From Candidatus Saccharimonadota bacterium (GTDB lineage Bacteria; Bacteroidota; Bacteroidia; Flavobacteriales; Blattabacteriaceae): a stretch of 32,000 bases of DNA. Shown in pieces: positions 8,570-32,000 of the stretch. The position numbers and the translations under genes are program-made. The first letter of the stretch is position 1. Each line of letters begins with the position of its first letter. Below the pieces are notes generated by a model that was not told the origin of the DNA, made no database searches, and worked only from the letters and a program-made list of their open reading frames with translations. The stretch is taken from NCBI RefSeq assembly GCF_033370915.1, contig NZ_CP104096.1, positions 2,700 to 34,699 on the forward strand. Direction: 5' to 3'.

Positions 8570-10867
8570 ATGAAAATATTTAAGAAATACAAATATTATA
8601 AAAAGAAAATTAAAAAAATTAATAAAAAAATTTGTAATATTATTTCTATTAAATATAATGTATTATTTCCAGGCTTAATATTAATGATTAATTTAAATAA
8701 TAAAAATATTATTAATAAAATAAATAATTTATATAAAAAAAAAAAATTAATAGGAGTAATTACAAAAAATAATAAATTAAAAAATAAAATATATAAAGTA
8801 GGTACTGTAGGAAAAATATTAAAAATTATAAATTTAAATAATAAATTAATAATTATAATAAAAGGTAAATATAGATTTAAAATTAGAAATAATTTATACA
8901 ATTATAATAACAAATATTTTAAAGCTATAATAAAAAAAATAAAATCTTATAAATGTAGTAATAAAAAATATTTAATATTATTTTATATAATTAAAAATTT
9001 AATAATAAAAATAATTAAAATAAATGATATTTTAAATAATAAATTAATTAATACTGTATATGAGATTAAAAATATAATACATTTAACAAATTTTATAAAT
9101 ATAAATTTAAAATTAAATTATAAAAAAAAACAAAAAATATTAGAAGAAAATAATATTATAAAAAGATTATATAAATTATTAATCAATTTAAAAATAGAAT
9201 ATAAAAAAATTTTATTATTTAATAAATTTAAATATAAAATAAATAATAAATTAAAACCTAAAATTAATAATTTTGATTTTTATGAAGATAATATATTAAA
9301 ATCATTATTAAAATTATATAAAAAAAAAAAACATAAATTATCAAAAAAAGTTAAAAAATTTTTTTTAGTTGAATATTATAAACTTAAATTATTAAATTAT
9401 CAATTACCAGAATATTCAATTAATATAAATTATTTAAAGTTTTTTATTTCATTACCTTGGTATAAGTATACTAAAGATAATTATAATTTATTAAGAGCTA
9501 AATTTTTATTAAATAAATTTCATTATGGTTTAAAAGATATAAAAAATAGAATATTAGAATATTTAGCTATTTATAAATTAAAAAAAGGTAATGTAAAATC
9601 TCCAATAATATGTTTATATGGTCCTCCAGGTGTAGGAAAAACATCATTAGGAATATCTATAGCTAAAGTATTAAATAGAAAATATGTAAGAATATCTTTA
9701 GGAGGTTTACATGATGAATCTGAATTAAGAGGCCATAGAAAAACTTATATAGGAGCAAGACCAGGTAGAATATTACAAAATATAAAATTAGCTAATAGTT
9801 CAAATCCAGTTTTTGTATTAGATGAAATAGATAAAATAAGTGTAGGATATAATGGAAATCCCTCATCAGCAATGTTAGAAATTTTAGATCCTGAACAAAA
9901 TAAAAATTTTTATGATAATTATTTAGAAATTGGATATGATCTATCAAAAGTTTTATTTATAGCTACTGCAAATAATATTAATAATATAAATGATGCATTA
10001 TTAGATAGAATGGAAATAATTAATATTAATGGATATGTAGTAGAAGAAAAAATTAAAATAGCAAAAAAATATATAATTCCACAACTAATAAGACAAAATG
10101 GAATAAAAAATAAAATTAAAATTAATGATAAAATATTAAATAATATTATTTTAAATTATACTTATGAATGTGGTATAAGAAAACTTAAAGAATGTATAGA
10201 TAAAATTATACGTTATATAGCTAAATATTTAGTTATGAAAAATATAATAATTTCTAAAATAGATAATAAATTATTAGTTAAAATTTTAGGATATTCAAAA
10301 TTACATAAAACATATGAAAAAATTAATATTCCAGGGGTATGTGTAGGATTAGCTTGGACTAATAATGGAGGTGAAATATTATATATAGAAACCAATTTAA
10401 TTAAAGGTAAAGGATTATTAAGTATTACAGGTAATGTAGGTAAAATAATGAAAGAATCAGTTATTATAGCAATGAAATATATAAAAGCTAATTATAAAAT
10501 ATATAATATAAATTATAAATTATTAACTAATTATGATGTTCATTTACATATTCCTGAAGGTTCAATACCTAAAGATGGACCCTCAGCCGGAATAACAATA
10601 TTTACTGCATTATTTTCATTATATACTAATAAAATAATAAAACATTATACAGCAATGACAGGGGAAATAACTTTAAGTGGAAAAATATTAGAAGTAGGTG
10701 GTATAAAATATAAAGTATTAGGAGCTAAAAGATCATTAATAAAAAATATAATATTACCAAAAAATAATAAAAATGATGTAAAAGAAATAAATAAAAAAAT
10801 ATTAAATAATATTAAAATATTTTATGTAAATAAATTAGAAGATATAATAAAAATAGCATTTAAATAA
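8570..10867 (+). CDS. lon: ATP-dependent Lon protease
   Basis: 765-aa ORF. Walker A GPPGVGKTSLG and RGHRKTYIGARPGRILQ are present, with Walker B VFVLDEIDK. Protease motifs are PKDGPSAGITIFTAL (catalytic Ser) and GGIKYKVLGAKRS (catalytic Lys). Confidence 0.96.
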   Translation: MKIFKKYKYYKKKIKKINKKICNIISIKYNVLFPGLILMINLNNKNIINKINNLYKKKKLIGVITKNNKLKNKIYKVGTVGKILKIINLNNKLIIIIKGKYRFKIRNNLYNYNNKYFKAIIKKIKSYKCSNKKYLILFYIIKNLIIKIIKINDILNNKLINTVYEIKNIIHLTNFININLKLNYKKKQKILEENNIIKRLYKLLINLKIEYKKILLFNKFKYKINNKLKPKINNFDFYEDNILKSLLKLYKKKKHKLSKKVKKFFLVEYYKLKLLNYQLPEYSININYLKFFISLPWYKYTKDNYNLLRAKFLLNKFHYGLKDIKNRILEYLAIYKLKKGNVKSPIICLYGPPGVGKTSLGISIAKVLNRKYVRISLGGLHDESELRGHRKTYIGARPGRILQNIKLANSSNPVFVLDEIDKISVGYNGNPSSAMLEILDPEQNKNFYDNYLEIGYDLSKVLFIATANNINNINDALLDRMEIININGYVVEEKIKIAKKYIIPQLIRQNGIKNKIKINDKILNNIILNYTYECGIRKLKECIDKIIRYIAKYLVMKNIIISKIDNKLLVKILGYSKLHKTYEKINIPGVCVGLAWTNNGGEILYIETNLIKGKGLLSITGNVGKIMKESVIIAMKYIKANYKIYNINYKLLTNYDVHLHIPEGSIPKDGPSAGITIFTALFSLYTNKIIKHYTAMTGEITLSGKILEVGGIKYKVLGAKRSLIKNIILPKNNKNDVKEINKKILNNIKIFYVNKLEDIIKIAFK

Positions 10868-14716: not shown

Positions 14717-15457
14717 ATGTTAGAAATTAAAAATTTATATGTAAAAATAAAAAATAATTTAATTATTAAAGGATTAAATTTAAAAATTAAAAAAAATGAA
14801 ATACATGTTATTATGGGACCAAATGGATCAGGTAAAAGTACATTATCATATATAATTTCAGGTAAACCTAAATATATAATAGATAAAGGAAAAATATTAT
14901 TTAATAAAAAATTAATTAATAATTTATCACCTTATGAAATATCTAAATTAGGAATATTTTTATCTTTTCAATATCCAATAGAAATTAATGGGATAACAAT
15001 GTATATATTTTTAAAAAATATATTAAAAAATAAATATAAGAATAAAGTATTATTTAAAAAAATATATAAAGTATGTAAAAAATTAAATATTAATAAAAAT
15101 AATTTATATCGTTATTTTAATGTAGGTTTTTCAGGAGGTGAAAAGAAAAAAAATGAAATATTACAAATGTTATTATTAAAACCTAAATTAGTAATATTAG
15201 ATGAAATTGATTCTGGTTTAGATATAGATACATTAAATTTAATATTTAAAAATATTAATAAATATAAAAAAAAATATAAATGTTCATTAATAATAATTAC
15301 ACATAATACAAATATTGTAAAATATATTAATCCAAATTATGTACATATATTGTATAATGGGAAAATAATAAAAAGTAGTAATAAAAATATAATATACAAT
15401 ATTGATAAATATGGATATAAAAAAATAATAAAAAATGAAAATAAAAAAAATAATTAA
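14717..15457 (+). CDS. sufC: Fe-S cluster assembly ATPase SufC
   Basis: 246-aa ORF. Walker A GPNGSGKSTL, ABC signature FSGGEKKKNEILQ, Walker B LVILDEIDSGLDID, and H-loop ITH. Confidence 0.93.
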   Translation: MLEIKNLYVKIKNNLIIKGLNLKIKKNEIHVIMGPNGSGKSTLSYIISGKPKYIIDKGKILFNKKLINNLSPYEISKLGIFLSFQYPIEINGITMYIFLKNILKNKYKNKVLFKKIYKVCKKLNINKNNLYRYFNVGFSGGEKKKNEILQMLLLKPKLVILDEIDSGLDIDTLNLIFKNINKYKKKYKCSLIIITHNTNIVKYINPNYVHILYNGKIIKSSNKNIIYNIDKYGYKKIIKNENKKNN

Positions 15458-16652
15458 TAATATAAATAAAAAAAAAAGAAAAAAAATATTAAAATTATTA
15501 ATTAAAAAAAAAAAAAATATAAAAGATAAATATAAATATTCAAAAATTAAAAATATTATAAAATTTAATAAATTTTATAATAAAAATAATAATAAAAAAA
15601 AATATAAATTTAAAAAAAAATATAAAAATGATATTAATATAATATATATAAATGGAAAATTAAATAATATAATTATTAAAAAAAAAATAAAAAAATTTAT
15701 TAAAATAAAAAAAATATTAATTAAAAAAATATTTAATAAATATTTAAAATATTTTATATTTTATAATTATTATTCTTTTATTAATTTATTATCAAATTAT
15801 AATAATTATATATATATAATAGATATAAATAATATTCATAAAATAAATTTAAAAATATATTTTATATTTTTAAAAAAAAATAAATATAAAAATATAATTA
15901 ATGATAATCTTTTTATAAAAGTAAAAAATAAATTAAATATTATAGATAAATATATATTAAAAAATAAAAATAAAAGAATTATTAATAATTTAATAATAAA
16001 TATATTATTAAAAAAAAATAGTAAAGTAAATTATTATAAATTTTATAATAATAAAAATAATTTATATAATATTAATAATATATATATATATCAAGATTAT
16101 AAAAGTAAATTAATATTATATAATATATATTTAAATAATAAATTTACATTAAATGAAATAAATATTAAATATATTAATAATAATTGTTATACAAGATTAT
16201 ATAATATTATTATATTAAGTAATAATCAAATATTAGAAAATTATATAAATATAATAAATAATTATAATTATTGTAATAATAAATTATATTATATAGGGAT
16301 TTATAATAATAATTCATATTGTGTAATAAATGGTATAATTAATATAAAAAAAAATACTAAAGATAATATAGCATTACAAGATTATAAAAATTTTATTTTA
16401 TCTAATAAAGTATTTTTATTTTCTAAACCTGAATTAAATATTAATTCTAATAAAGTTATATGTTCTCATGGTTTAACATTAGGTAAAATAGATAAAAATA
16501 TAATTTATTATTTATTAACTAGAGGTTTAAAATTAAAAGAATGTAAAATAATATTTTATTTATCTAATATTTATAATTATTTAAAAATAAATAATAAAAT
16601 TTTAAAAAATATAAATAAACAAATTATAAATAAATTATATAGTAATGTTTAA
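15435..16652 (+). CDS. sufD: Fe-S cluster assembly protein SufD (highly diverged)
   Basis: 405-aa ORF between sufC and sufS. The C-terminal SHGLTLGKIDKNIIYYLLTRGLKLKECKIIF matches SufD SHGATVGQLDEE.LFYL.SRGI. The N-terminal half is almost pure Lys/Asn/Ile, so the start is uncertain. Confidence 0.75.
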   Translation: MKIKKIINNINKKKRKKILKLLIKKKKNIKDKYKYSKIKNIIKFNKFYNKNNNKKKYKFKKKYKNDINIIYINGKLNNIIIKKKIKKFIKIKKILIKKIFNKYLKYFIFYNYYSFINLLSNYNNYIYIIDINNIHKINLKIYFIFLKKNKYKNIINDNLFIKVKNKLNIIDKYILKNKNKRIINNLIINILLKKNSKVNYYKFYNNKNNLYNINNIYIYQDYKSKLILYNIYLNNKFTLNEINIKYINNNCYTRLYNIIILSNNQILENYINIINNYNYCNNKLYYIGIYNNNSYCVINGIINIKKNTKDNIALQDYKNFILSNKVFLFSKPELNINSNKVICSHGLTLGKIDKNIIYYLLTRGLKLKECKIIFYLSNIYNYLKINNKILKNINKQIINKLYSNV

Positions 16653-17874
16653 TAAAAAAGAAATTAAATTAATAAGAGAAAAATTTCCAATATTAAAAAA
16701 ATATATAAATGGTTATAAATTAATATATTTTGATAATTCTTCTACAACACAAAAACCAAAGATTTTAATTGATAAAATAAAAGAATATTATTATAATTAT
16801 AATTCTAATATTTATAGATATAATAATTATTTAAGTGTTAAATCTACTATGTATGTAGATGAATGTAGAAAAATAATTAAACAATTAATTAATGCTAATA
16901 GTATTAAAGAAATTATTTTTACTAAAAGTACAACTGAATCAATTAATTTAATATCAGTATGTTTAAATTATTTTAAAAAAAATGAAATTATTATTTCTCA
17001 ATTAGAACATCATTCTAATATAATACCATGGCAAATTTTATGTAAAAGAAAAAAATTAAAATTAAAAATATTAAAAATAAATAAAAAATATAATATATCA
17101 TTAAATAATTTAAAATCAAAATTAACTAAAGAAACTAAAATTGTTTCTCTTACTCATATATCAAATGTATTTGGAACTATTTTACCAATTAAAAAAATAG
17201 TTGAAATAATAAAAAATTATAATAAAGATATATTAATTGTGTTAGATTGTGCTCAATCAATTGCTCATATACCTATAAATGTACAAGAATTAAAGGTAGA
17301 TTTTTTAGTATTTTCAAGTCATAAAGTATATGGGCCAACAGGATTAGGGATATTATATTGTAAAAAAGAAATATTAAATAAATTAATACCATATCAATAT
17401 GGTGGAGGAATGATAAAAAAAGTAAGATATAAAAGAAATATATATGATAAATATAATAAAAAATTAGAAGCAGGAACATTAAATATAGAATCTATATATA
17501 GTTTTATGTATGTAATTAAATATTTAAAAAAAATAAAAATTTATAACATTAATATTTATGAAAATAAATTAATTAATTATTTAAAAAAATTATTATTAAA
17601 GAATAAAAATATTATTTTATATGGAAAAAATAATATTTATTCCTCATCAATATTGTCATTTAATATAAAAAATATAAATAATAATGATATAGGATTATTA
17701 TTAAATAATTATGGTATACAAGTAAGAATAGGTAATCAATGTGCAGAACCATTAATGAAATATTTAAGATTAAATGGAGGAACAATAAGAGTAAGTTTAG
17801 GAATATATAATAATAAAAAAGAAATAAATAAATTTTATTTTTATTTAAATAAAATAATTAATAAATTAAAATAA
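16645..17874 (+). CDS. sufS: Cysteine desulfurase SufS (PLP-dependent)
   Basis: 409-aa ORF. Blocks: FDNSSTTQKP, EHHSNIIPWQ, LTHISNVFGT, DCAQS, FSSHKVYGPTGLGILY (PLP-Lys), and RIGNQCAEPL (catalytic Cys loop). Confidence 0.92.
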   Translation: MFNKKEIKLIREKFPILKKYINGYKLIYFDNSSTTQKPKILIDKIKEYYYNYNSNIYRYNNYLSVKSTMYVDECRKIIKQLINANSIKEIIFTKSTTESINLISVCLNYFKKNEIIISQLEHHSNIIPWQILCKRKKLKLKILKINKKYNISLNNLKSKLTKETKIVSLTHISNVFGTILPIKKIVEIIKNYNKDILIVLDCAQSIAHIPINVQELKVDFLVFSSHKVYGPTGLGILYCKKEILNKLIPYQYGGGMIKKVRYKRNIYDKYNKKLEAGTLNIESIYSFMYVIKYLKKIKIYNINIYENKLINYLKKLLLKNKNIILYGKNNIYSSSILSFNIKNINNNDIGLLLNNYGIQVRIGNQCAEPLMKYLRLNGGTIRVSLGIYNNKKEINKFYFYLNKIINKLK

Positions 17875-18069
17875 TAAATATTTATTTATTTTTTTTTCAT
17901 CTATTAATATTTCAATAAAAGAATAATTATTATTTTTTTTTTTAATCATTTTAATAAATTTAATAATTTTTTTTTTTTTCATGAATAGTATAATTTAATA
18001 TATAAATTATATAAATAAATATTATTATATATATATTTACATAAAATAATATATAAATAAATAATTTAT

Positions 18070-18576
18070 ATGGAATATAATACTAAAACAAATAAAATAG
18101 TATTTAGTCAATATGGAAGAAATATACAAATATTAATAGATGAAACATTAAATATTAGTAAAAAAACAAAAAGAATTAAAATATATATATATATATTAAA
18201 AATTATGAAAGATAATAATCTTATAATAAATAATATTGATATATATAAACGTAAATTATGGGATCAATTATATTTATTAACTAATAATAAATTAAAAGAA
18301 TATCCTTTTAAAAATAAAAAACCTATTTATTTTTTAAATAAAAAAAAAAAATATATAAAATTAAATTATCCTAAACAAATAAAACAATATAAATATTACG
18401 GAAAAATAATACAAAAATTTATTAAAAAGATAATTAAAATAAAAAATAAATATAAATATATATATAATATTGCTAATATAATGAAAAATAATAATATAAA
18501 TAATATTAAATTAAAATATAGTACAATATTAAAAGATATAAAATTAATTTCAAAAGGAAAAATTGATTTAATATAA
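18070..18576 (+). CDS. Conserved Bacteroidota protein of unknown function, DUF4290-like
   Basis: 168-aa ORF. The N-terminal MEYNTKTNKIVFSQYGRNIQILID, the internal KRKLWDQLYLL and a later YKYYGKIIQKFIKKI resemble my recollection of the DUF4290 family pattern (EYNT....L..PEYGRN[IV]Q..., KLWD.L, Y..YG..I..MI). This rests on recall only, with no search run. Confidence 0.6.
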   Translation: MEYNTKTNKIVFSQYGRNIQILIDETLNISKKTKRIKIYIYILKIMKDNNLIINNIDIYKRKLWDQLYLLTNNKLKEYPFKNKKPIYFLNKKKKYIKLNYPKQIKQYKYYGKIIQKFIKKIIKIKNKYKYIYNIANIMKNNNINNIKLKYSTILKDIKLISKGKIDLI

Positions 18577-18605: not shown

Positions 18606-18680
18606 AGGTGGTTAGCTCAGTTGGTTTAGAGCGTTTGCCTTACAAGCAAAATGTCACTAGTTCGAATCTAGTACCACCTA
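18606..18680 (+). tRNA. trnV: tRNA-Val (anticodon UAC)
   Basis: Plus-strand fold: AGGTGGT TA GCTC AGTTGGTTTA GAGC G TTTGC CTTACAA GCAAA ATGTC ACTAG TTCGAAT CTAGT ACCACCT A. Confidence 0.9.
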
Positions 18681-23304: not shown

Positions 23305-23914
23305 TAAAATAAAAAAAAATATAAATATAATAAATAAATATAATAGGTTCAAAAATAAAGAACATATTATTTATTTATATGTTAAAAAATATCTAAATTC
23401 AAAAAGAAAAAATACAAGTAAAACAAAAGAAAGAAGTGAAATAAAAGGTAGTACTAGAAAAATACAAAAGCAAAAAGGAACAGGTAATGCAAGAAAAGGA
23501 GATATAAAAAATCCTATATTTAGAGGTGGGGGAAGAATATTTGGTCCAAAAAATAATAGAAATTATAAAAATAAAATAAATAAAAAAGTTTATAAAATAG
23601 TTAAAAAAATTTTATTATGTAATAAAATAATCAATAAAAAAGTATTTATATTAAAACAAATAAAATTTTACTCACATAAAACAAAATATTTTATTAATTA
23701 TTTTAAAAAATTAAAATTTAAAATAAATAATAAAAAAAAATATTTAATAATAACAGATAAAATATATAAAAAATTACTTATTTCATCAAATAACATTAAA
23801 AATGTAAGAATTAATTATATTAAACAAATAAATATATATAATATATTAATATCAGATTATATAATATTTATAAATAAAAAAATAAATAATATAATAAATA
23901 TAATAAAAAAATGA
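23282..23914 (+). CDS. rplD: 50S ribosomal protein L4
   Basis: 210-aa [44 protein letters not shown] matches the L4 core. The start codon is uncertain (23-bp overlap with rplC). Confidence 0.88.
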
Positions 23915-24156
23915 AGTTATTAATAAGTCCTTTAAAAACTTATAAGTCAATTAATTTATATAAAAAATATAATTTATATAGTTATTATTTAAATAAAAAA
24001 AAAATAAATAAAATACAATTAAAAAAATATTTTAAAATTAATTATTATTTAATAGTAAAAAAAATAAATATTATTAAAATAAAAAAAAAAAATAAAAATA
24101 TTATAAAAATAATAGTAAAATTTTTAAAAAATAAAAAAAATATTAAATTATTATGA
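23911..24156 (+). CDS. rplW: 50S ribosomal protein L23 (very diverged, called mainly by position)
   Basis: 81-aa ORF in the exact rplD-rplB slot, with ATGA overlaps at both ends. Only loose L23 resemblance (ISPLKTYKS...[17 protein letters not shown]). Confidence 0.65.
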
Positions 24157-24923
24157 AAAAAATAAAAATAAAAAGATTAAAATACAATAAATTAATTTAT
24201 GGAAAATTAAAATCAGGAGGTAGAAATAATCAAGGAAGAATAACTGTAAGATATATAGGTGGTGGTCATAAACAAAAATATAGATTAATAGATTTTAAAA
24301 GAAATAAATATGATGTAATAGCTACTGTAAAAAATATTGAATATGATCCTAATAGGTCAGCTTATATATCTTTATTATATTATAAAGATGGAGAAAAAAA
24401 ATATATTTTATCTGTAAAAGGATTAAAAAAAGGAGATAGAATAATATCCTCAAGAACAAAATCATCATTAAATTTAGGTGATTCAGCTCCATTACATTTA
24501 ATACCTTTAGGTACTATAATATGTTGTATAGAAAATATTCCAGGTAATGGAGCAATATATTCAAGAAGTGCCGGAACATATTCAAAAATAATATCAAAGG
24601 ATAAAAAATATGCAATTATAAAATTATCATCTAATGAAAAAAAAATGATATTATTAAATAGTATGGCAACAATAGGAAGTATATCAAATAAAAATCATAA
24701 ATTTAAAAAATTAAAAAAAGCAGGAAATAATAGATGGATAGGAAAAAGACCAAGAACAAGAGGAGTAGCAATGAATCCTATAGATCATCCTATGGGTGGT
24801 GGTGAAGGTAAAGCATCAGGAGGACATCCAAAAAGTAGAAAAGGAATTTACGCAAAAGGTTTTAAAACACGTAAAAAAAATAAAAAATATTCAAAATATA
24901 TTTTAAAAAAGGATAAAAAATAA
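24153..24923 (+). CDS. rplB: 50S ribosomal protein L2
   Basis: 256-aa ORF. Blocks: GGRNNQGRITVRYIGGGHKQKYRLIDFKR, IEYDPNRSAYISLL, and RGVAMNPIDHPMGGGEGKASGGHP. Confidence 0.98.
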   Translation: MKKIKIKRLKYNKLIYGKLKSGGRNNQGRITVRYIGGGHKQKYRLIDFKRNKYDVIATVKNIEYDPNRSAYISLLYYKDGEKKYILSVKGLKKGDRIISSRTKSSLNLGDSAPLHLIPLGTIICCIENIPGNGAIYSRSAGTYSKIISKDKKYAIIKLSSNEKKMILLNSMATIGSISNKNHKFKKLKKAGNNRWIGKRPRTRGVAMNPIDHPMGGGEGKASGGHPKSRKGIYAKGFKTRKKNKKYSKYILKKDKK

Positions 24924-24932
24924 AAAAAAAAA

Positions 24933-25331
24933 ATGGGAAAAAGAAAAAGAAATACAGCGTTAAAAATAAAAAAAAAAAATAAAAATAAAATTTATTCTTA
25001 TATAAAAAATGTAAGAATTTCACCAAGAAAAATAAGAAATTTAATAAATTTAATAAAAGGTAAAAATGTTTTAAATGCTATTGAGATTTTAAAAAATTAT
25101 ATAAGTTATAAAAAATCAAAAATATTAATAAATTTAATATTATCAACAATATCAAATTATAAAATAAAAACAGGTAAAAAGGATATAAAAAATTTATATA
25201 TTTATAGTTTAATAGTAAATAGTTCAGGAATAATTAAAAGAGTAAGATATGCACCACAAGGTAGGATAAATAAAATAATAAAAAGATTAAGTATAATAAA
25301 ATTAGAAATAAAAAATAAAAAAATTAAATAA
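24933..25331 (+). CDS. rplV: 50S ribosomal protein L22
   Basis: 132-aa ORF with a basic N-terminal extension, MGKRKRN..., as in Bacteroidota L22. Also VRISPRKIRNLINLIKGKNVLNAIEIL and IKRVRYAPQGRINKIIKR. Confidence 0.87.
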   Translation: MGKRKRNTALKIKKKNKNKIYSYIKNVRISPRKIRNLINLIKGKNVLNAIEILKNYISYKKSKILINLILSTISNYKIKTGKKDIKNLYIYSLIVNSSGIIKRVRYAPQGRINKIIKRLSIIKLEIKNKKIK

Positions 25332-25332
25332 A

Positions 25333-26106
25333 ATGGGGCAAAAATCAAATCCAATATCTAATAGATTAGGAATAATTTATGGATGGAAATCAATATGGAT
25401 AAAAAATTATTATTTAAATGTTAATGAAGATAATATGATAAGAAATTATATAAATAATAGATATAAATATTGTATATCTACAATAATAATTGAAAAAATT
25501 AAAAATAGAGTAATAATTACTATATGTACGTCTAAACCTGCTATAGTAATAGGGAAAAAAGGAAAAGAAGTAGAAAAGTTAAAAAAAATTATAAATAATA
25601 TTATAATAAATAATAAAAAAGAATATTTATATTATAAAAAAATAGAAAATAATAGTTATGATATTTATATAAATGTAGTAGATGTAAAAAATCCAGAAAT
25701 AGATTCAATATTAGTATCTAAAAATATATGTAGACAATTAGAAAGTAGAATATATTATAAAAAATCTATTAAATATGCTATAAAATCAGCAATGATAAAA
25801 AAAATAAATGGAATAAAAATAAAAATTTCTGGTAGATTAAATGGAGCAGAAATAGCAAGAACTGAAGTATATAAAGAAGGTAGTATAAAATCATCAACAT
25901 TAAGATCAAATATTGATTATTCATTATCAGAAGCAAATACTAAATATGGAAAAATAGGAGTAAAAGTATGGATAATGAAAGGGGAAATATATGAAATGAA
26001 AAAATATTTTACTAATTTTAATAATAGTTTTAATAAAAGTATTAATAAAAAAAAAAGTATTAATAAAAATGGCAAAAAAAAAATATTTAAAACAACAAAA
26101 AGGTAG
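25333..26106 (+). CDS. rpsC: 30S ribosomal protein S3
   Basis: 257-aa ORF. Blocks: [18 protein letters not shown], the KH region [18 protein letters not shown], and [45 protein letters not shown]. Confidence 0.93.
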
Positions 26107-26485
26107 AATTAAAGGTTTTGCTAAAAGAGGATATAAATTACATTTTGGTAAGTATGGTATTCAATCAATTGATAAACAAAAATATATTACTGAAAAACAA
26201 ATAGAAGCAGCTAGAGTAGCAGCTACTAGATATATGAAAAGAGAAGGAAAATTATATATAAATATTTTTACTTATAAACCTATTACAAAAAAACCACAAG
26301 AAGTAAGAATGGGAAAAGGAAAAGGAAATGTAGAATATAATGTAGCAGTAGTAAAACCAGGAAGAATATTATTTGAAATTAATGGAGTATCAGAAAATAT
26401 AGCAAAAGAAGCATTAAGATTATGTGCACAAAAATTACCAGTAAAAACAAAATATATTATTTATGATGATTATTTTAAATATTAA
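26069..26485 (+). CDS. rplP: 50S ribosomal protein L16
   Basis: 138-aa ORF. Blocks: [40 protein letters not shown], and [30 protein letters not shown]. It overlaps the rpsC tail by 38 bp. Confidence 0.95.
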
Positions 26486-26490
26486 TTAAT

Positions 26491-26730
26491 ATGAAAATAA
26501 AAGAAGGTATTATAATAAGTGATAAAATGAATAAAACTAGAATAGTTTTAAATAAAATAATAATAAAACATAAAAAATATAGAAAAACAATATTAAAAAA
26601 AAAAAAATATTATGTACATGATGAAAAAAATATTACTAAAAAAGGAGATCTTGTAAAAATTATTGAAACAAGACCATTAAGTAAAAAAAAACGTTGGATA
26701 ATAAAAAAAATAATAAATAAAAAAAAATAA
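26491..26730 (+). CDS. rpsQ: 30S ribosomal protein S17
   Basis: 79-aa ORF. GIIISDKMNKTRIV...KKYYVHDEKNITKKGDLVKIIETRPLSKKKRW matches the S17 pattern. Confidence 0.9.
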   Translation: MKIKEGIIISDKMNKTRIVLNKIIIKHKKYRKTILKKKKYYVHDEKNITKKGDLVKIIETRPLSKKKRWIIKKIINKKK

Positions 26731-26733
26731 AAT

Positions 26734-27096
26734 ATGTTACAACAAGAATCAAAATTAAAAGTAACTGATAATAGTGGAGCTAAAGAAGCATTAATTATAA
26801 GAATATTAGGAAATAAAAAATATGCTAGTATTGGGGATATTATAGTAGTAACTATAAAAAAAGTATTGTTAAAAAGTACTATAAAAAAAGGAGAAATATA
26901 TAAAGCAATAATAGTAAGAGTAAAAAATAAAATAAAAAGAAAAGATGGAACATATATATTATTTGATGATAATGCATGTATATTATTAAATGAAAATAAA
27001 GAAATAAAAGGGACAAGAATATTTGGTCCAGTATCAAGGGAGTTAAGGGAAAAAGGATATATGAAAATAATATCATTATCAAATTATGTTATTTAA
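26734..27096 (+). CDS. rplN: 50S ribosomal protein L14
   Basis: 120-aa ORF: MLQQESKLKVTDNSGAKEALIIRILG...FDDNACILLN...GTRIFGPVSRELREKGYMKIISLS. Confidence 0.97.
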   Translation: MLQQESKLKVTDNSGAKEALIIRILGNKKYASIGDIIVVTIKKVLLKSTIKKGEIYKAIIVRVKNKIKRKDGTYILFDDNACILLNENKEIKGTRIFGPVSRELREKGYMKIISLSNYVI

Positions 27097-27101
27097 TAAA
27101 A

Positions 27102-27350
27102 ATGAATAAAATTAAAATAGGAGATAAAGTAATAATAATATCAGGTAAAGAAAAAGGAAAAAGAGGGAAAATAATGAGAATAATAAAAAATAAAGTTTAT
27201 GTAAAGGGGATAGTAAAAAAAATTATAGATATATCTAATATATCTATAGAAGATCCTAAATTAAAATGTAGAACAAAAATAAAAATAAAAAAATTAAAAA
27301 ATGGAAAAAAAATTAGAATATGTAAAAAATCTAATACTATATTAGATTAA
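27102..27350 (+). CDS. rplX: 50S ribosomal protein L24 (shortened)
   Basis: 82-aa ORF with the KOW motif KIGDKVIIISGKEKGKRGKI. It occupies the slot between rplN and rplE. Confidence 0.85.
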   Translation: MNKIKIGDKVIIISGKEKGKRGKIMRIIKNKVYVKGIVKKIIDISNISIEDPKLKCRTKIKIKKLKNGKKIRICKKSNTILD

Positions 27351-27363
27351 ATTATAAAATAAA

Positions 27364-27930
27364 ATGTATATACCAAGATTAAAATTATTATATGAAAAAA
27401 AAATTATAAATATTTTAAAAAAAAAATTAAAATATAAAAATATAATGCAAGTACCTAAATTAAATAAAATTGTAATTAATATAGGAGTAGGTATAAAAAA
27501 AAATATATTAGATACTATGGAAGATTTATCATTATTAACAGGTCAAAAAGCGACTTATAGATTATCTAAAAAAGATATATCAGGATTAAATTTAAGAAAA
27601 GGTACAAAAATAGGTTGTATGGTTACATTAAGAAGAAATATAATGTATGAATTTTTAGAAAGATTAATATCAGTAGCATTACCTAGATCAAAAGATTTTA
27701 ATGGAATAAAAGAAAATAGTTTTGATGGAAAAGGAAATTATAATTTAGGTATAAAAGAACATATAATTTTTCCAGAAATTAATTTTGAGAAAGTAAAAAG
27801 AATTTATGGAATGAATATAAGTTTTGTAACAAGTACAAAATTTGATAAAGAAGCTAAATATTTATTAATTTATTTAGGGTTACCTTTTAAAAATAAAAAT
27901 ATATATGGCAAAAGAATCATTAAAATCTAG
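27364..27930 (+). CDS. rplE: 50S ribosomal protein L5
   Basis: 188-aa ORF. Blocks: [11 protein letters not shown]...[49 protein letters not shown], and [20 protein letters not shown]. Confidence 0.96.
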
Positions 27931-28174
27931 ACAAAAAAAAAAAAACAAATTATTTATTAAATATTATAAAAAAAATAAATATTTAAAAAATAATAAAAAA
28001 TTTTTAGAATTACAAAAAATTCCTAGAAATGCTTCAATTGTAAGACAAAAAAATATATGTAAAATAACAGGAAGAACAAGAGGTTATATAAGATTTTTTG
28101 GAATATCACGTATAGAATTTAGAAGATTATCATCAAATGGTTTAATACCAGGAATAAAAAAATCAAGTTGGTAA
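27905..28174 (+). CDS. rpsN: 30S ribosomal protein S14 (long, non-zinc type)
   Basis: 89-aa ORF: [13 protein letters not shown]...[38 protein letters not shown]. Confidence 0.93.
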
Positions 28175-28560
28175 TGGATACTATTGGAAATTATTTAACA
28201 TTAATAAGAAATGCATGTAATGTTAAAAAAAGTTATGTAAAAGTTAATTATTCAAAAATAAATAAAAATATAACTAAAGTATTATATAAAAATAATTATA
28301 TAAAAAAATATAAAATATATAAAATTAATAAAATAAATAAAATAAAAATATATTTAAAATATATAAATAATAATTCAGTAATAATAAAAATAAAAAGAAT
28401 AAGTAAACCAAGTTTAAGAAAATATTTAAAATATAAAAATATTTATAAAGTTTTAAATGGATATGGAATTTCTATTATATCAACTTCTATGGGAGTAATG
28501 ACTGGAAAAGAAGCAAAATTAAAAAAAATAGGTGGAGAAATATTATGTATAATTTATTAA
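28174..28560 (+). CDS. rpsH: 30S ribosomal protein S8
   Basis: The ORF track starts at TTG 28168. I prefer ATG 28174, which overlaps the rpsN TAA by one base (TAATG). [14 protein letters not shown] and the C-terminal GYGISIISTSMGVMTGKEAKLKKIGGEILCIIY are S8 hallmarks. Confidence 0.92.
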   Translation: MDTIGNYLTLIRNACNVKKSYVKVNYSKINKNITKVLYKNNYIKKYKIYKINKINKIKIYLKYINNNSVIIKIKRISKPSLRKYLKYKNIYKVLNGYGISIISTSMGVMTGKEAKLKKIGGEILCIIY

Positions 28561-28567
28561 TAATAAT

Positions 28568-29119
28568 ATGTCAAGAATAGGAAAAAAATATATAATAATT
28601 CCTAAAAATGTAAATATATATAAAAAAGATAAATATATATATGTAAAAGGTAAATTAGGAAATTTAAAACAAAAAATTAATAAAAATATAATTATAAAAA
28701 TATTAGATGATAAAATAAAATTAATAAATAAAAAAAATAATGAAAAAAAATATAAAAGTTTACATGGACTTTATAGAATGTTAATATATAATATGATAAA
28801 AGGTGTAAATGAAGGTTATAATAAAAAATTAGAATTAGTAGGAGTAGGATATAAGGCTATTGGAAAAGGTAAAATTTTAAATTTAAACGTAGGATATTCA
28901 CATAAAATAGTAATGAAATTTTGTAAAGAAATTAATATAACAACAGAAAATGTAAAAGGAGAAAATACAATTATAAATATTTTTTGTATTAATAAACAAT
29001 TATTAGGAATAGTAGCATCAAAAATAAGATCTTTAAAAAAACCTGAACCATATAAAGGAAAAGGTATAAGATATATAAATGAAAAAATAATAATTAAAAA
29101 GTATAGGTTGTTCATGTGA
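28568..29119 (+). CDS. rplF: 50S ribosomal protein L6 (C-terminal few residues replaced at a junction with valS sequence)
   Basis: 183-aa ORF. MSRIGKKYIIIP, LVGVGYKA, LNVGYSH and KPEPYKGKGIRYINEKIIIKK are L6 blocks. The last residues, YRLFM-stop(TGA), are read out of frame from valS-homologous DNA. Confidence 0.92.
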   Translation: MSRIGKKYIIIPKNVNIYKKDKYIYVKGKLGNLKQKINKNIIIKILDDKIKLINKKNNEKKYKSLHGLYRMLIYNMIKGVNEGYNKKLELVGVGYKAIGKGKILNLNVGYSHKIVMKFCKEINITTENVKGENTIINIFCINKQLLGIVASKIRSLKKPEPYKGKGIRYINEKIIIKKYRLFM

Positions 29120-29141
29120 TTGGAATAGAAAACAATTTACT

Positions 29142-31307
29142 ATGGATAAAAATAATTATAAATCTGTAATTAAAGTATTTATAAAATTATATGAAAAAGG
29201 AATAATATATAAAAAAAATAAATTAGTAAATTGGGATACTTATGCAAAAACTACAATTTCTGATGAAGAAATAATATATAAAAAAATAAAAAAAAATTTA
29301 TATTATATTAAATATTTTACTGAAGATAAAAAAAAATATTTAGTAATAGCTACTACAAGACCAGAAACAATATTTGGAGATACAGCAGTATGTATTAATC
29401 CAAAAGATAAAAGATATAAAAATATTATAAATTATAAATTAATAGTACCAATAGTAAATAGAGTAATACCAATAATTACAGATAAATCAGTAGATAAAAA
29501 ATTTGGAACAGGATGTATAAAAATTACTCCTGCCCATAGTAAAGAAGATTATAAAATATATAAAAAACATAAATTAAATATAATAAATATTTTTAATGAC
29601 GATGGTACATTAAATGAAAAAGGTAAGTTTTTAAAAGGTAAAGATAGATTTTATGTAAGAAAAAAAATTTATAAAATTTTAAATAAATTAGGTTATTTAG
29701 TAAAAAAAGAAAAAATAATAAGAAAAATAGCTTATTCAGATAGATCAAATACAATTATAGAAAATAAATTATCTTCACAATGGTTTTTAAAAATGAAATA
29801 TTTAATTAAACCAGTATTAAAAAAAAAAAAAAATATTATTTTTTATCCTAAAAATAAATATAATAATTTATGTAATAAATGGATTAATAATATTAAAGAT
29901 TGGAATATTTCAAGACAATTAAAATGGGGCCATAGAATACCAGTTTATTATTATAAAAATAATTTAGTAGTAGCCAAAAATTTAAATAATGCAATAAAAA
30001 AATTTAAAAAAAAATATAATAAAATTAACATAAATTATATAAAACAAGATAAAGATGTATTAGATACTTGGTTTTCTTCTTGTATATTACCAATTTCAGT
30101 ATTATATGGTATTAATAAACCTAATAATATTGATTTTAATTATTATTTTCCTATTGAAATTTTAGTTACTGGTTATGATATATTATTTTTTTGGGTTTTA
30201 AGAATGATAATGTTAAGTAGTTATTTAATAAATAAAATACCATTTAAAAAAGTATATTTAACAGGTATAGCAAGAGATAATAATAAAAGAAAAATTTCTA
30301 AATCTTTAGGTAATTATAAAAATTTATATGTTTTATTAAATAAATATGGTGCAGATGGAATTAGAACAGGTATATTAAGTACTAATTATGAATATGATTT
30401 TATTTATAATGAGAATTTATGTATAAAAGGTAGAAATTTTATAAATAAAATATGGAATGCATTTAAATTAATAATAAAAATAAAATATAAAGTTAAACAA
30501 AATAATAAAACAAAAAAAATTAATAAAATAATTGTAAAATGGTTTAAAAATATTTTATATTATAAAATATATAAATTAAATTATTATTTAGATAATTATA
30601 AAATATATAAATCATTTATTTTAATTAATAATTTATTTAAAAAAAAATTTTGTTCTATATATTTAGAGTATATTAAAAAACAAAAAACAGATAATTTTTT
30701 AATTAAAAAAACTTTTAAATTTTTTTATATTTTATTAAAAATTTTACATCCATATGCTCCATTTATTACTGAATATATTTGGAAATTATTAAAAAAAAAA
30801 AAAGATATTACTATTTCTAATTGGCCTAAAATAAAAAAATTTAATAAAAAAATAATTAATAAATTTAATTATACCTTAAATTTTATAAAATATTTAAAAC
30901 AAATAAAATTTAAAAATTCAAAAAAAAATTATGTTATTTATATATATAAAAGTTATAAAAATAATTTTAAAATATATATTCAATTAATATATAAATTTAC
31001 TTTAATAAAAAAAATAAAAATAAAAAGTAAATTAAAAAATAAAAAAAAATATTTATTATTTATTTATAAAAATATAAAATTTTTTTTATTAAAAAAAAAT
31101 ATTATTATTAATAAAAATAATGAAAATAAAAAAATATATAAAAAAATAAAATTTTATAAAAAATATTTATTAAATATAAATAATAAATTAAAAAATAAAA
31201 ATTTTTTATTTAAAGCGCCTAAAAAAATTATTAATTTAGAAAATAAAAAAAAAAAAGATATTGAAAAATTAATTATTAATTTAAAAAAAAAAATAATAAT
31301 TAATTAA
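29142..31307 (+). CDS. valS: Valyl-tRNA synthetase, 5'-truncated: lacks about the first 130 residues including the HIGH motif. Could be a split gene, a recent pseudogene or an assembly artefact.
   Basis: 721-aa ORF. In the same frame, ValRS homology continues upstream of the first ATG to about 29094 ([18 protein letters not shown], canonical RLG.S.DW.RERFTMDE), just after a TAA at 29091-29093. Downstream blocks are VNWDT, [92 protein letters not shown] (KMSKS) and the C-terminal [23 protein letters not shown]. No HIGH region exists anywhere upstream. Confidence 0.9.
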   Translation: [721 protein letters not shown]

Positions 31308-31614
31308 ATATTTTTTTATTAGATAAACTAAAATTTAATTCAGGTATTATAAATTTATTTTTTAAAAAAATAGATAATTTTTTTTTATAATAATTTTTTT
31401 TATTTTTAATTTTATTAAAAATTTCATTTTTGTATTTATTTGGATATATAGAAATATATATATTAGAATAACTATAATTTTTATTTATATAAACATATAC
31501 AACAGAAATTAATATATTTTTAAATTTATTATCAACAATAAATAATTTATTAAAAAAATAATTAATTAAATTTGAATATCTTTTTTGTTTTAATGTCTTT
31601 ATTTGTTTGATCAT
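31300..31614 (-). CDS. rbfA: Ribosome-binding factor A (diverged)
   Basis: 104-aa ORF. The layout KQKRYSNLINYFFNKLF....ISVVYVYINKNYSYSNIYISIY....LKNKFIIPELNFSL fits the RbfA pattern (R..R....I...L......VT.V.VS.DL..A.VY......LR......P.L.F). Similarity is loose. It overlaps the valS 3' end convergently by 8 bp. Confidence 0.6.
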   Translation of the reverse strand: MIKQIKTLKQKRYSNLINYFFNKLFIVDNKFKNILISVVYVYINKNYSYSNIYISIYPNKYKNEIFNKIKNKKNYYKKKLSIFLKNKFIIPELNFSLSNKKIFN

Positions 31615-31655
31615 ATATAAAATCTATATTAGATAAATAGATATATTAATAATAT

Positions 31656-32000
31656 ATGACAAATAATAAAAATGTTACTGAAAATATTAATAATATTAAT
31701 GTAACTGAAAATTTAACTAATAAAAATTTAACTAATAAAAATGTTACTGAAAATGTAACTAATAATGTAACTAATAATGTAACTGAAAATGTTACTACTG
31801 AAAATGTTACTACTGAAAATGTTACTAATGAAAATGTTACTAATGAAAATGTTACTAATGAAAATGTTACTACTGAAAATGTTACTAATGAAAATGTTAC
31901 TAATGAAAATGTTACTACTGAAAATGTTACTAATGAAAATGTTACTAATAATAATAATGTTACTGAAAATGTAACTGATAATAAAACTGAAAAAGATTAT
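31656..32000 (+). CDS. Partial ORF (5' end) of unknown identity with an N-terminal N-[VIL]-T-x repeat region; continues beyond the window
   Basis: My own translation from ATG 31656 gives MTNNKNVTENINNINVTENLTNKNLTNKNVTENVTNNVTNNVTENVTTENVTTENVTNENVTNENVTNENVTTENVTNENVTNENVTTENVTNENVTNNNNVTENVTDNKTEKDY. That is 115 codons with no stop, open to the window end. It is not in the supplied ORF track because it is unterminated. Coding status is uncertain because a repeat keeps frames open by itself. Confidence 0.45.
   Translation, partial: MTNNKNVTENINNINVTENLTNKNLTNKNVTENVTNNVTNNVTENVTTENVTTENVTNENVTNENVTNENVTTENVTNENVTNENVTTENVTNENVTNNNNVTENVTDNKTEKDY
31785..31949 (+). repeat. Perfect tandem repeat, 15-bp unit gaaaatgttacta[c/a]t x 11, with a 45-bp higher-order periodicity
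   Basis: Counted directly. The units start at 31785, 31800, 31815, and so on up to 31935. They differ only at position 14 (act vs aat), in the order T,T,N,N,N,T,N,N,T,N,N. Degenerate 12/15-bp relatives (aatgt[ta]act gaaaat / aataat) extend upstream to about 31671. Confidence 0.97.

Follow-up and report, generated by a model that had tools for sequence, protein, structure and literature searches.

The DNA described here is a 32,000-nucleotide stretch (the window, whose coordinates are used unless another locus is named) of the 160,463-base-pair (bp) chromosome of Candidatus Shikimatogenerans bostrichidophilus, a Bacteroidota symbiont that supplies bostrichid beetles with tyrosine precursors. 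Our subject is a junction at which rplF, the gene for ribosomal protein L6, runs directly into the interior of valS, the gene for valyl-tRNA synthetase (ValRS). With a G+C content of about 15%, the window carries on its + strand a str-S10-spc gene string of the Bacteroidota type, in the order rpsL, rpsG, fusA, rpsJ, rplC, rplD, an open reading frame (ORF) at the rplW position, rplB, rplV, rpsC, rplP, rpsQ, rplN, rplX, rplE, rpsN, rpsH and rplF. The usual upstream neighbour of rplF, rpsH (28168..28560, +; NCBIfam S8, E = 2.8e-42), is in its usual place, in a block collinear with all four of the related loci compared below, so the synteny to the left of the junction is kept.

The rplF gene itself (28568..29119, +) is essentially complete. 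Its product of 183 amino acids (aa), compared with 182-184 aa in relatives, covers positions 1-172 of the 175 of NCBIfam profile TIGR03654 (185 bits vs. a cutoff of 168.6) and is 89-94% identical to the L6 proteins of the sibling chromosomes; the ratio of nonsynonymous to synonymous substitution rates (dN/dS) on the window branch is 0.10. What differs is the extreme C-terminus, where the usual ...IIIKKGKSV* is replaced by ...IIIKKYRLFM*. The new tail, YRLFM followed by TGA (29102..29119, +; sense codons 29102-29116, stop 29117-29119), was read directly and consists of valS-derived DNA in the wrong frame.

ValRS homology begins at 29094, in the +1 frame. The 5′-truncated valS (29094..31307, +) is recognizable from ValRS residue ~126-129 onward: its first residue aligns with residue 129 of the solved T. 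thermophilus ValRS (1GAX), and of two NCBIfam profiles it covers 126-859 of 860 positions in the first and 128-861 of 863 in the second, the second match scoring 681.7 bits, just short of the NF004349 cutoff of 704. Two in-frame TAA stops (29088..29093, +, read directly) lie just before the start of homology, and the valS frame is therefore not extendable 5′ of 29094. The first ATG, at 29142, opens a 721-aa product, identical in WOX79427.1 and WP_318165952.1, which is annotated as a 'class I tRNA ligase family protein'. The first ~125-128 residues, including the HIGH signature, are gone, while the KMSKS motif (here KISKS) is present, as are the editing and anticodon-binding domains. The complete Rossmann-fold catalytic domain with its HIGH signature, by which a functional valine-tRNA ligase is recognized, is not found in the window ValRS; the valS product of a sibling (P0003) carries PPPNITGDLHIGH within the missing part. 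A frameshift by slippage on the A run of the join, which would yield one L6-ValRS fusion protein, was considered and rejected, since only 5 A make up this run and the two TAA codons close the valS frame just upstream. It should be noted that the substrate of the enzyme, a tRNA-Val with anticodon TAC (18606..18680, +; ARAGORN), is still encoded on this chromosome although its valS lacks the catalytic N-terminus.

To the right, valS is followed by its usual downstream neighbour rbfA (31300..31614, -; Pfam RBFA, E = 7e-9), in the same position and on the same strand as in the relatives MSCA and DPOR, and then by grpE, again as in relatives; rbfA is absent from both siblings. With rbfA in its usual place, the right-hand synteny is also kept. 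A first-pass annotation of this DNA had described rplF as running into mid-valS at about 29094 without a spacer, the L6 frame as closing with five out-of-frame valS codons plus TGA, and the valS 5′ end as absent. All three statements hold; tblastn finds ValRS matches in the window only from residue 125 onward. Its further claim, that a single breakpoint cuts two essential genes, does not: L6 is full length and valS alone is truncated.

The missing block and its proposed scar

Four loci served for comparison: MSCA (CP099831), DPOR (CP099822) and the two sibling chromosomes CP104095 (GCA_033371715.1) and CP104094 (GCA_033372575.1), of each of which ~13-22 kilobases (kb) were covered. We relied on filtered blastn and on direct reading of the sequence, as unfiltered blastn and a global aligner were swamped by AT-rich low-complexity matches. 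Closed genomes of 164-200 kb have already been published for this symbiont (CP099821-CP099833; Kiefer et al. 2023, PMC10284843). The record that holds the window is not among them, the supplementary tables of that paper comprising CP0998xx and CP1003xx records only, and a literature search (on the accessions, on lineage splitting in Bostrichidae and on Prostephanus symbiont genomes) returned no paper on CP104094, CP104095 or the window genome.

In MSCA and DPOR the gene order is rplF-rplR-rpsE-rplO-infA-rpmJ-rpsM-rpsK-rpsD-rpoA-rplQ-valS-rbfA-grpE, with a valS of 861-866 aa and rbfA on the - strand. CP104094 has the same order between rplF and valS, without rplO-infA-rpmJ-rpsM. Blastn of the window against MSCA gives two blocks, 24913-29099 and then 29059-31740, in the same orientation and with ~4.5 kb skipped between them. 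Against CP104094, the nearest sibling (92-94% nucleotide identity on both flanks), 3,437 nucleotides (nt) are absent, from the last rplF codons to valS codon ~126. Since gene order and orientation on either flank match those of the relatives, with rpsH-rplF on the left and valS-rbfA-grpE on the right, the comparison points to a simple collinear internal deletion and not a rearrangement.

The scar (29092..29100, +) is a single kept copy of a 9-nt direct repeat, AATTAAAAA, which occurs in CP104094 both at the rplF end (~6940 of that locus) and in valS (~10377). The CP104094 sequence reads ...GAAAAAATAATAATTAAAAAAGG at the end of rplF and ...AAACAATTAAAAAGTATAGG in valS, whereas the window reads ...GAAAAAATAATAATTAAAAAGTATAGG across the join. 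Collinear flanks, a repeat present at both ancestral sites and just once at the scar, and a scar free of foreign DNA are what a deletion between short direct repeats leaves behind.

None of the proteins L18, S5, S11, S4, RpoA and L17 of the relatives has a tblastn match in the 32-kb window. L15, IF-1 and S13 gave no match outside MSCA in the scan, L36 being too short to query. A search of 5.8 billion proteins with the sibling RpoA recovered every published Shikimatogenerans RpoA, while the sibling-type cluster has a single member, on a 156,922-bp chromosome; among annotated proteins, the only ones covered, there is none on the 160,463-bp or the 151,789-bp chromosome. The sibling-type ValRS N-terminus was likewise found, among annotated proteins, on the 156,922-bp chromosome only and not on the 160,463-bp one. 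This second search used a composite query of the ValRS N-terminus, S13, L15 and L17, of which the ValRS part alone matched; self-matches were absent for S13, L15 and L17, making the search uninformative for those three. The deposited window chromosome thus has no annotated rpoA, although copies flagged as pseudogenes would escape a protein search. The interpretation offered by the first-pass annotation is thus partly supported. The usual genes after rplF are missing as a large block, and the A-rich microhomology it quoted contains the exact 9-nt repeat; of the real rearrangement or deletion that it envisaged, the deletion stands, and the rearrangement falls with the conserved order and orientation of the flanks.

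The valS remnant does not look like an old pseudogene, to judge from its pattern of substitution. On the window branch its dN/dS is 0.15, compared to 0.35 and 0.34 for CP104095 and CP104094, respectively; all four insertions or deletions (indels) that separate it from CP104095 are multiples of 3, and its ORF is intact. There are 496 one-step routes to a stop codon in the remnant; under neutrality, ~14 nonsense changes would be expected on the branch, where 0 are observed (P ~8e-7). If the remnant were dead, the deletion would have to be younger than ~0.018 substitutions per site, and the constraint may simply reflect the youth of the deletion.

Losses among three sibling chromosomes

The window chromosome, CP104094 and CP104095 belong to the same submission batch, which includes the proteins WOX79158, WOX79285 and WOX79427. 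They are equidistant from each other, with a synonymous divergence (dS) of 0.15-0.25, and informative sites are split 19:13:14 over the three possible trees, as in a star-like radiation. Over the shared 13-22 kb the three differ by about a dozen deletions. CP104095 has lost rpsL and rplV, and CP104094 has lost rpsJ and the rplO-rpsM stretch; both siblings lack rplP-rpsQ-rplN-rplX and rpsN, in addition to rbfA. CP104095 and the window share the absence of rplR and of rpsK, rpoA and rplQ. Viewed from the other side, rplP, rpsQ, rplN, rpsN and rbfA are kept by the window only, and rplR, rpsK, a full rpsD, rpoA, rplQ and the valS N-terminus by CP104094 only. The deletions in the siblings thus appear largely complementary to those of the window, and most of the S10-spc-alpha cluster is reciprocal among the three, but rplO, infA and rpsM are without a match at this locus in any of them.

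A gene absent from the window chromosome only is rpsS (S19), which in both siblings, MSCA and DPOR lies between rplB and rplV; at the corresponding position (24908-24933) the window has almost no spacer. After the block beyond rplF, this is the second place on the chromosome where a core ribosomal gene has been lost cleanly and with gene precision.

Nearly every deletion end spares the neighbouring ORF, though in DPOR intergenic DNA makes up only ~2% of the region. Some deletions left diverged remnants: an rpsJ stub in CP104094, and the 3′ end of rplX and both ends of rpsN in CP104095. The shared genes have intact frames without random frameshifts and dN/dS values of 0.1-0.4 (0.18-0.23 per branch over 1,905 shared codons), and the retained copies in all three chromosomes are still under purifying selection. 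A gene-respecting pattern of this kind would result from selection filtering real deletions; gene-blind assembly error would not produce it.

The CP104095 locus has a related junction of its own. At positions 9745-10001 of that locus, a 77-codon fragment of rpsD is joined to the same valS sequence, with the microhomology AAACAATT at the join, and ends in the same out-of-frame tail, KKYRLFM*. We considered whether recent gene conversion between the window and CP104095 could be the source of their near-identical valS breakpoints and rejected it; there is no extra similarity beside the junction, and valS substitutions favour a pairing of the window with CP104094, not with CP104095. In CP104094, valS, the only sibling copy with an intact N-terminus, carries a 1-nt deletion at ~12095 (codon ~699), at the end of a 12-A run, which divides it into ORFs of 699 and 176 aa. 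This frameshift may be real, and possibly rescued by slippage, or may be a homopolymer error.

Several further features of these loci were recorded. The ORF at the rplW position (23911-24156; 81 aa) has equivalents in the siblings that are without a Pfam match on record; it is conserved among the siblings, with a dN/dS of 0.36 and 0.51 relative to the window but of 2.06 between CP104095 and CP104094. According to a preprint, no Shikimatogenerans genome has rplW. At the sufD position, an ORF of almost pure Asn/Lys/Ile (15435-16652) lies within a stretch of only 6.8% G+C and is possibly degenerating, and rplL (L7/L12; 1296-1676) has an internal low-complexity, Thr/Asn-rich insert, TITTTNTTTNNTTNNTTNNNS. 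Loss of rpoB after rplL was suspected at the left end of the window and rejected, as rpoB is present and runs off the window edge. GrpE has a long N-terminal tandem repeat that is wholly different in each chromosome, NVT(E/N)EN in the window (31656-32000), NNMDNKNKIENNNNIK in CP104095 (12244-12924 of that locus) and NIDKKSNIDKNI in CP104094 (12691-13272), the rest of the protein being conserved. Lastly, miaB and ligA, separate in CP104094 and DPOR, are called in CP104095 as a single fused ORF of 993 aa (15165-18146).

Origin of the junction

We propose that the junction probably marks a genuine and young deletion and that the chromosome carrying it is not self-sufficient. The youth of the event is suggested by the state of the valS remnant, with no stops, in-frame indels and a low dN/dS. 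Slipped-strand or illegitimate recombination between the two copies of the repeat, one in the last rplF codons and the other at valS codon ~125, would have removed rplR, rpsE, rpsK, rpsD, rpoA, rplQ and the first ~125 valS codons, together with rplO-infA-rpmJ-rpsM if these had not been lost earlier. Selection on rplF would have confined the left end to its last 5 codons, keeping L6 at full length. The outcome would be a 160-kb chromosome that, as far as its annotation tells, is without both the alpha subunit of RNA polymerase and a catalytically complete ValRS, and such a chromosome cannot be autonomous. Its persistence would depend on products supplied by other Shikimatogenerans genome copies within the same host, most likely by the co-deposited CP104094 and CP104095, with their complementary gene sets. 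More tentatively, there may be at least three co-resident and mutually dependent Shikimatogenerans chromosomes or lineages, derived from one split ancestral genome by reciprocal, gene-precise loss of core genes in the manner of the cicada symbiont Hodgkinia, with a truncated ValRS perhaps selected as a functional fragment in two of the three members. Short-repeat deletions are a known kind of event; what stands out here is the set of genes removed, together with the complementary pattern among the siblings.

Several observations weigh against this proposal. We know of no precedent for a bacterium without rpoA, unless it is complemented. The three chromosomes are not fully complementary at this locus, as rplO, infA and rpsM have no tblastn match there in any of them; rpmJ is below the ORF cutoff of the scan, and CP104094, with only 77 nt between rpsE and rpsK, has no room for it. 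That the three share a host is something we infer, and the one result that points to it is the joint submission batch. Exact look-ups of the window proteins L6, EF-Tu, S12 and the ValRS remnant, meant to reveal an independent assembly, matched no entry of the contig index, and the database search returned no Logan-derived copy of the sibling proteins. Repeats of 9 nt are common in this DNA, with 82 matches between the end of rplF and the next 3.45 kb, and nine further copies of AATTAAAAA lie inside the deleted stretch, so the microhomology supports the mechanism without explaining the choice of site. Finally, the valS breakpoint of CP104095 lies ~5 nt from that of the window and has a different left partner, an unlikely coincidence for two independent events. 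The options for this near-shared breakpoint are nested deletions in which selection still acts on the truncated protein, a local deletion hot spot or a systematic artefact.

The last of these options belongs to a broader alternative, which we regard as unlikely though it is the main rival: that the true chromosome has the whole block and a full valS, both lost from the record by a mis-join, a collapsed strain mixture, a chimeric amplified molecule or the manual merging of contigs. For a genome that stands alone, it is biologically implausible to lose rpoA, S4, S5, S11, L17, L18 and the ValRS active site at once; the valS remnant shows every sign of constraint, as if the real gene were intact; and the fact that two assemblies break valS at nearly the same point, with different left partners, could indicate a systematic cause. 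In the published pipeline for these symbionts, extracted contigs were re-assembled manually in Geneious, and the three records, at 152-160 kb and with no describing paper found, are smaller than any published closed genome. An assembly error is, however, difficult to reconcile with an exact overlap of 9-12 nt at the join, far under the k-mer or overlap length of any assembler, or with an L6 ORF that keeps its usual length across it. About a dozen other deletions in the siblings respect gene boundaries, some with diverged remnants, as gene-blind error would not, and the shared genes, free of random frameshifts, indicate a well-polished consensus. Moreover, the annotated proteins of the 160,463-bp record include no remaining copy of what is missing.

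Two other ways of accounting for the missing genes were weighed. If the rplR...rplQ block and the valS 5′ end had moved elsewhere on the same chromosome, as the first-pass annotation proposed, valS would be a split gene in two pieces, and the purifying selection on the remnant would fit a functional C-terminal subunit; copies flagged as pseudogenes or left unannotated would have escaped the protein-database search. We consider this very unlikely, given that neither a sibling-type RpoA nor a ValRS N-terminal protein is recorded on the 160,463-bp chromosome, that the missing genes are nowhere in the 32-kb window, and that the published genomes of the symbiont are highly syntenic. A genuine loss in which the host or some other organism, in place of a bacterial partner, supplies the proteins, as for an organelle, would accommodate the genes unmatched at this locus in all three chromosomes (rplO, infA and rpsM, and rpmJ for want of room), since some uncomplemented core loss may have occurred. 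There is, however, no precedent that we know of for a bacterial RNA polymerase alpha subunit or a dozen ribosomal proteins supplied by a host, and in CP104094 the genes are still present and under purifying selection, so that this explanation is scarcely credible.

Known systems and significance

Hodgkinia cicadicola of cicadas has reportedly undergone lineage splitting into complementary, mutually dependent genome circles (Van Leuven 2014; Campbell 2015; Lukasik 2018). As in that system, we see several closely related tiny chromosomes (dS ~0.15-0.25) with a star-like split, each without a different set of indispensable information-processing genes, with retained copies under purifying selection and with deletions that respect the boundaries of retained genes. 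Unlike Hodgkinia, an alphaproteobacterium, Shikimatogenerans belongs to the Bacteroidota and lives in beetles; its three chromosomes are only supposed to share a host, and at least three genes (rplO, infA and rpsM), probably with rpmJ, are missing at the locus from all three chromosomes.

Reduced endosymbiont genomes usually lose genes through deletions between short direct repeats, and the junction conforms to these in being a collinear internal loss, with one copy of the 9-nt repeat at each ancestral breakpoint and a single copy at the scar. The segment removed differs from the usual case in holding genes that are normally untouchable (rpoA, rpsD and rpsK). With the published Shikimatogenerans bostrichidophilus genomes the window chromosome shares the gene order to the left and right of the junction and a ValRS that is 57-74% identical. 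Unlike the 160-kb window record, the published genomes keep rpoA and a valS of 728-874 aa, full-length or C-terminally shortened, with an intact N-terminus in every copy checked, and the two inspected have a complete S10-spc-alpha cluster.

Class I aminoacyl-tRNA synthetases can be naturally split, as in the two-subunit LeuRS of Aquifex aeolicus, and in the window a large C-terminal ValRS fragment is likewise kept as an intact, constrained ORF. The break is at another site, however, so placed that the Rossmann fold loses its HIGH half, and a partner ORF for ValRS residues 1-125 was found neither in the 32-kb window (by tblastn) nor among the annotated proteins of the window chromosome. Chimeric or collapsed assembly joins can look similar, as abrupt A-rich junctions between two non-adjacent genes with no spacer. 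The junction studied here differs from them in its overlap of only 9-12 nt, its preserved flanking ORF, the absence of a second copy of the segment from the annotated proteins of the record, and breakpoints that, at many sibling deletions, are not blind to genes.

Should the junction prove artefactual, this symbiont would be represented in RefSeq by three 'complete genomes' that are seriously incomplete and unfit for gene-content comparisons. If it is real, this chromosome would be without the RNA polymerase alpha subunit, six to ten ribosomal or translation genes and a working ValRS, and yet its retained genes would be under normal purifying selection, a combination possible only with complementation from other genome copies. 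To our knowledge, the only well-documented bacterial case of such complementation is that of Hodgkinia in cicadas. Shikimatogenerans would then be a second, independent case, in another phylum and another insect order, and genome splitting would be a general end-state of extreme symbiont reduction.

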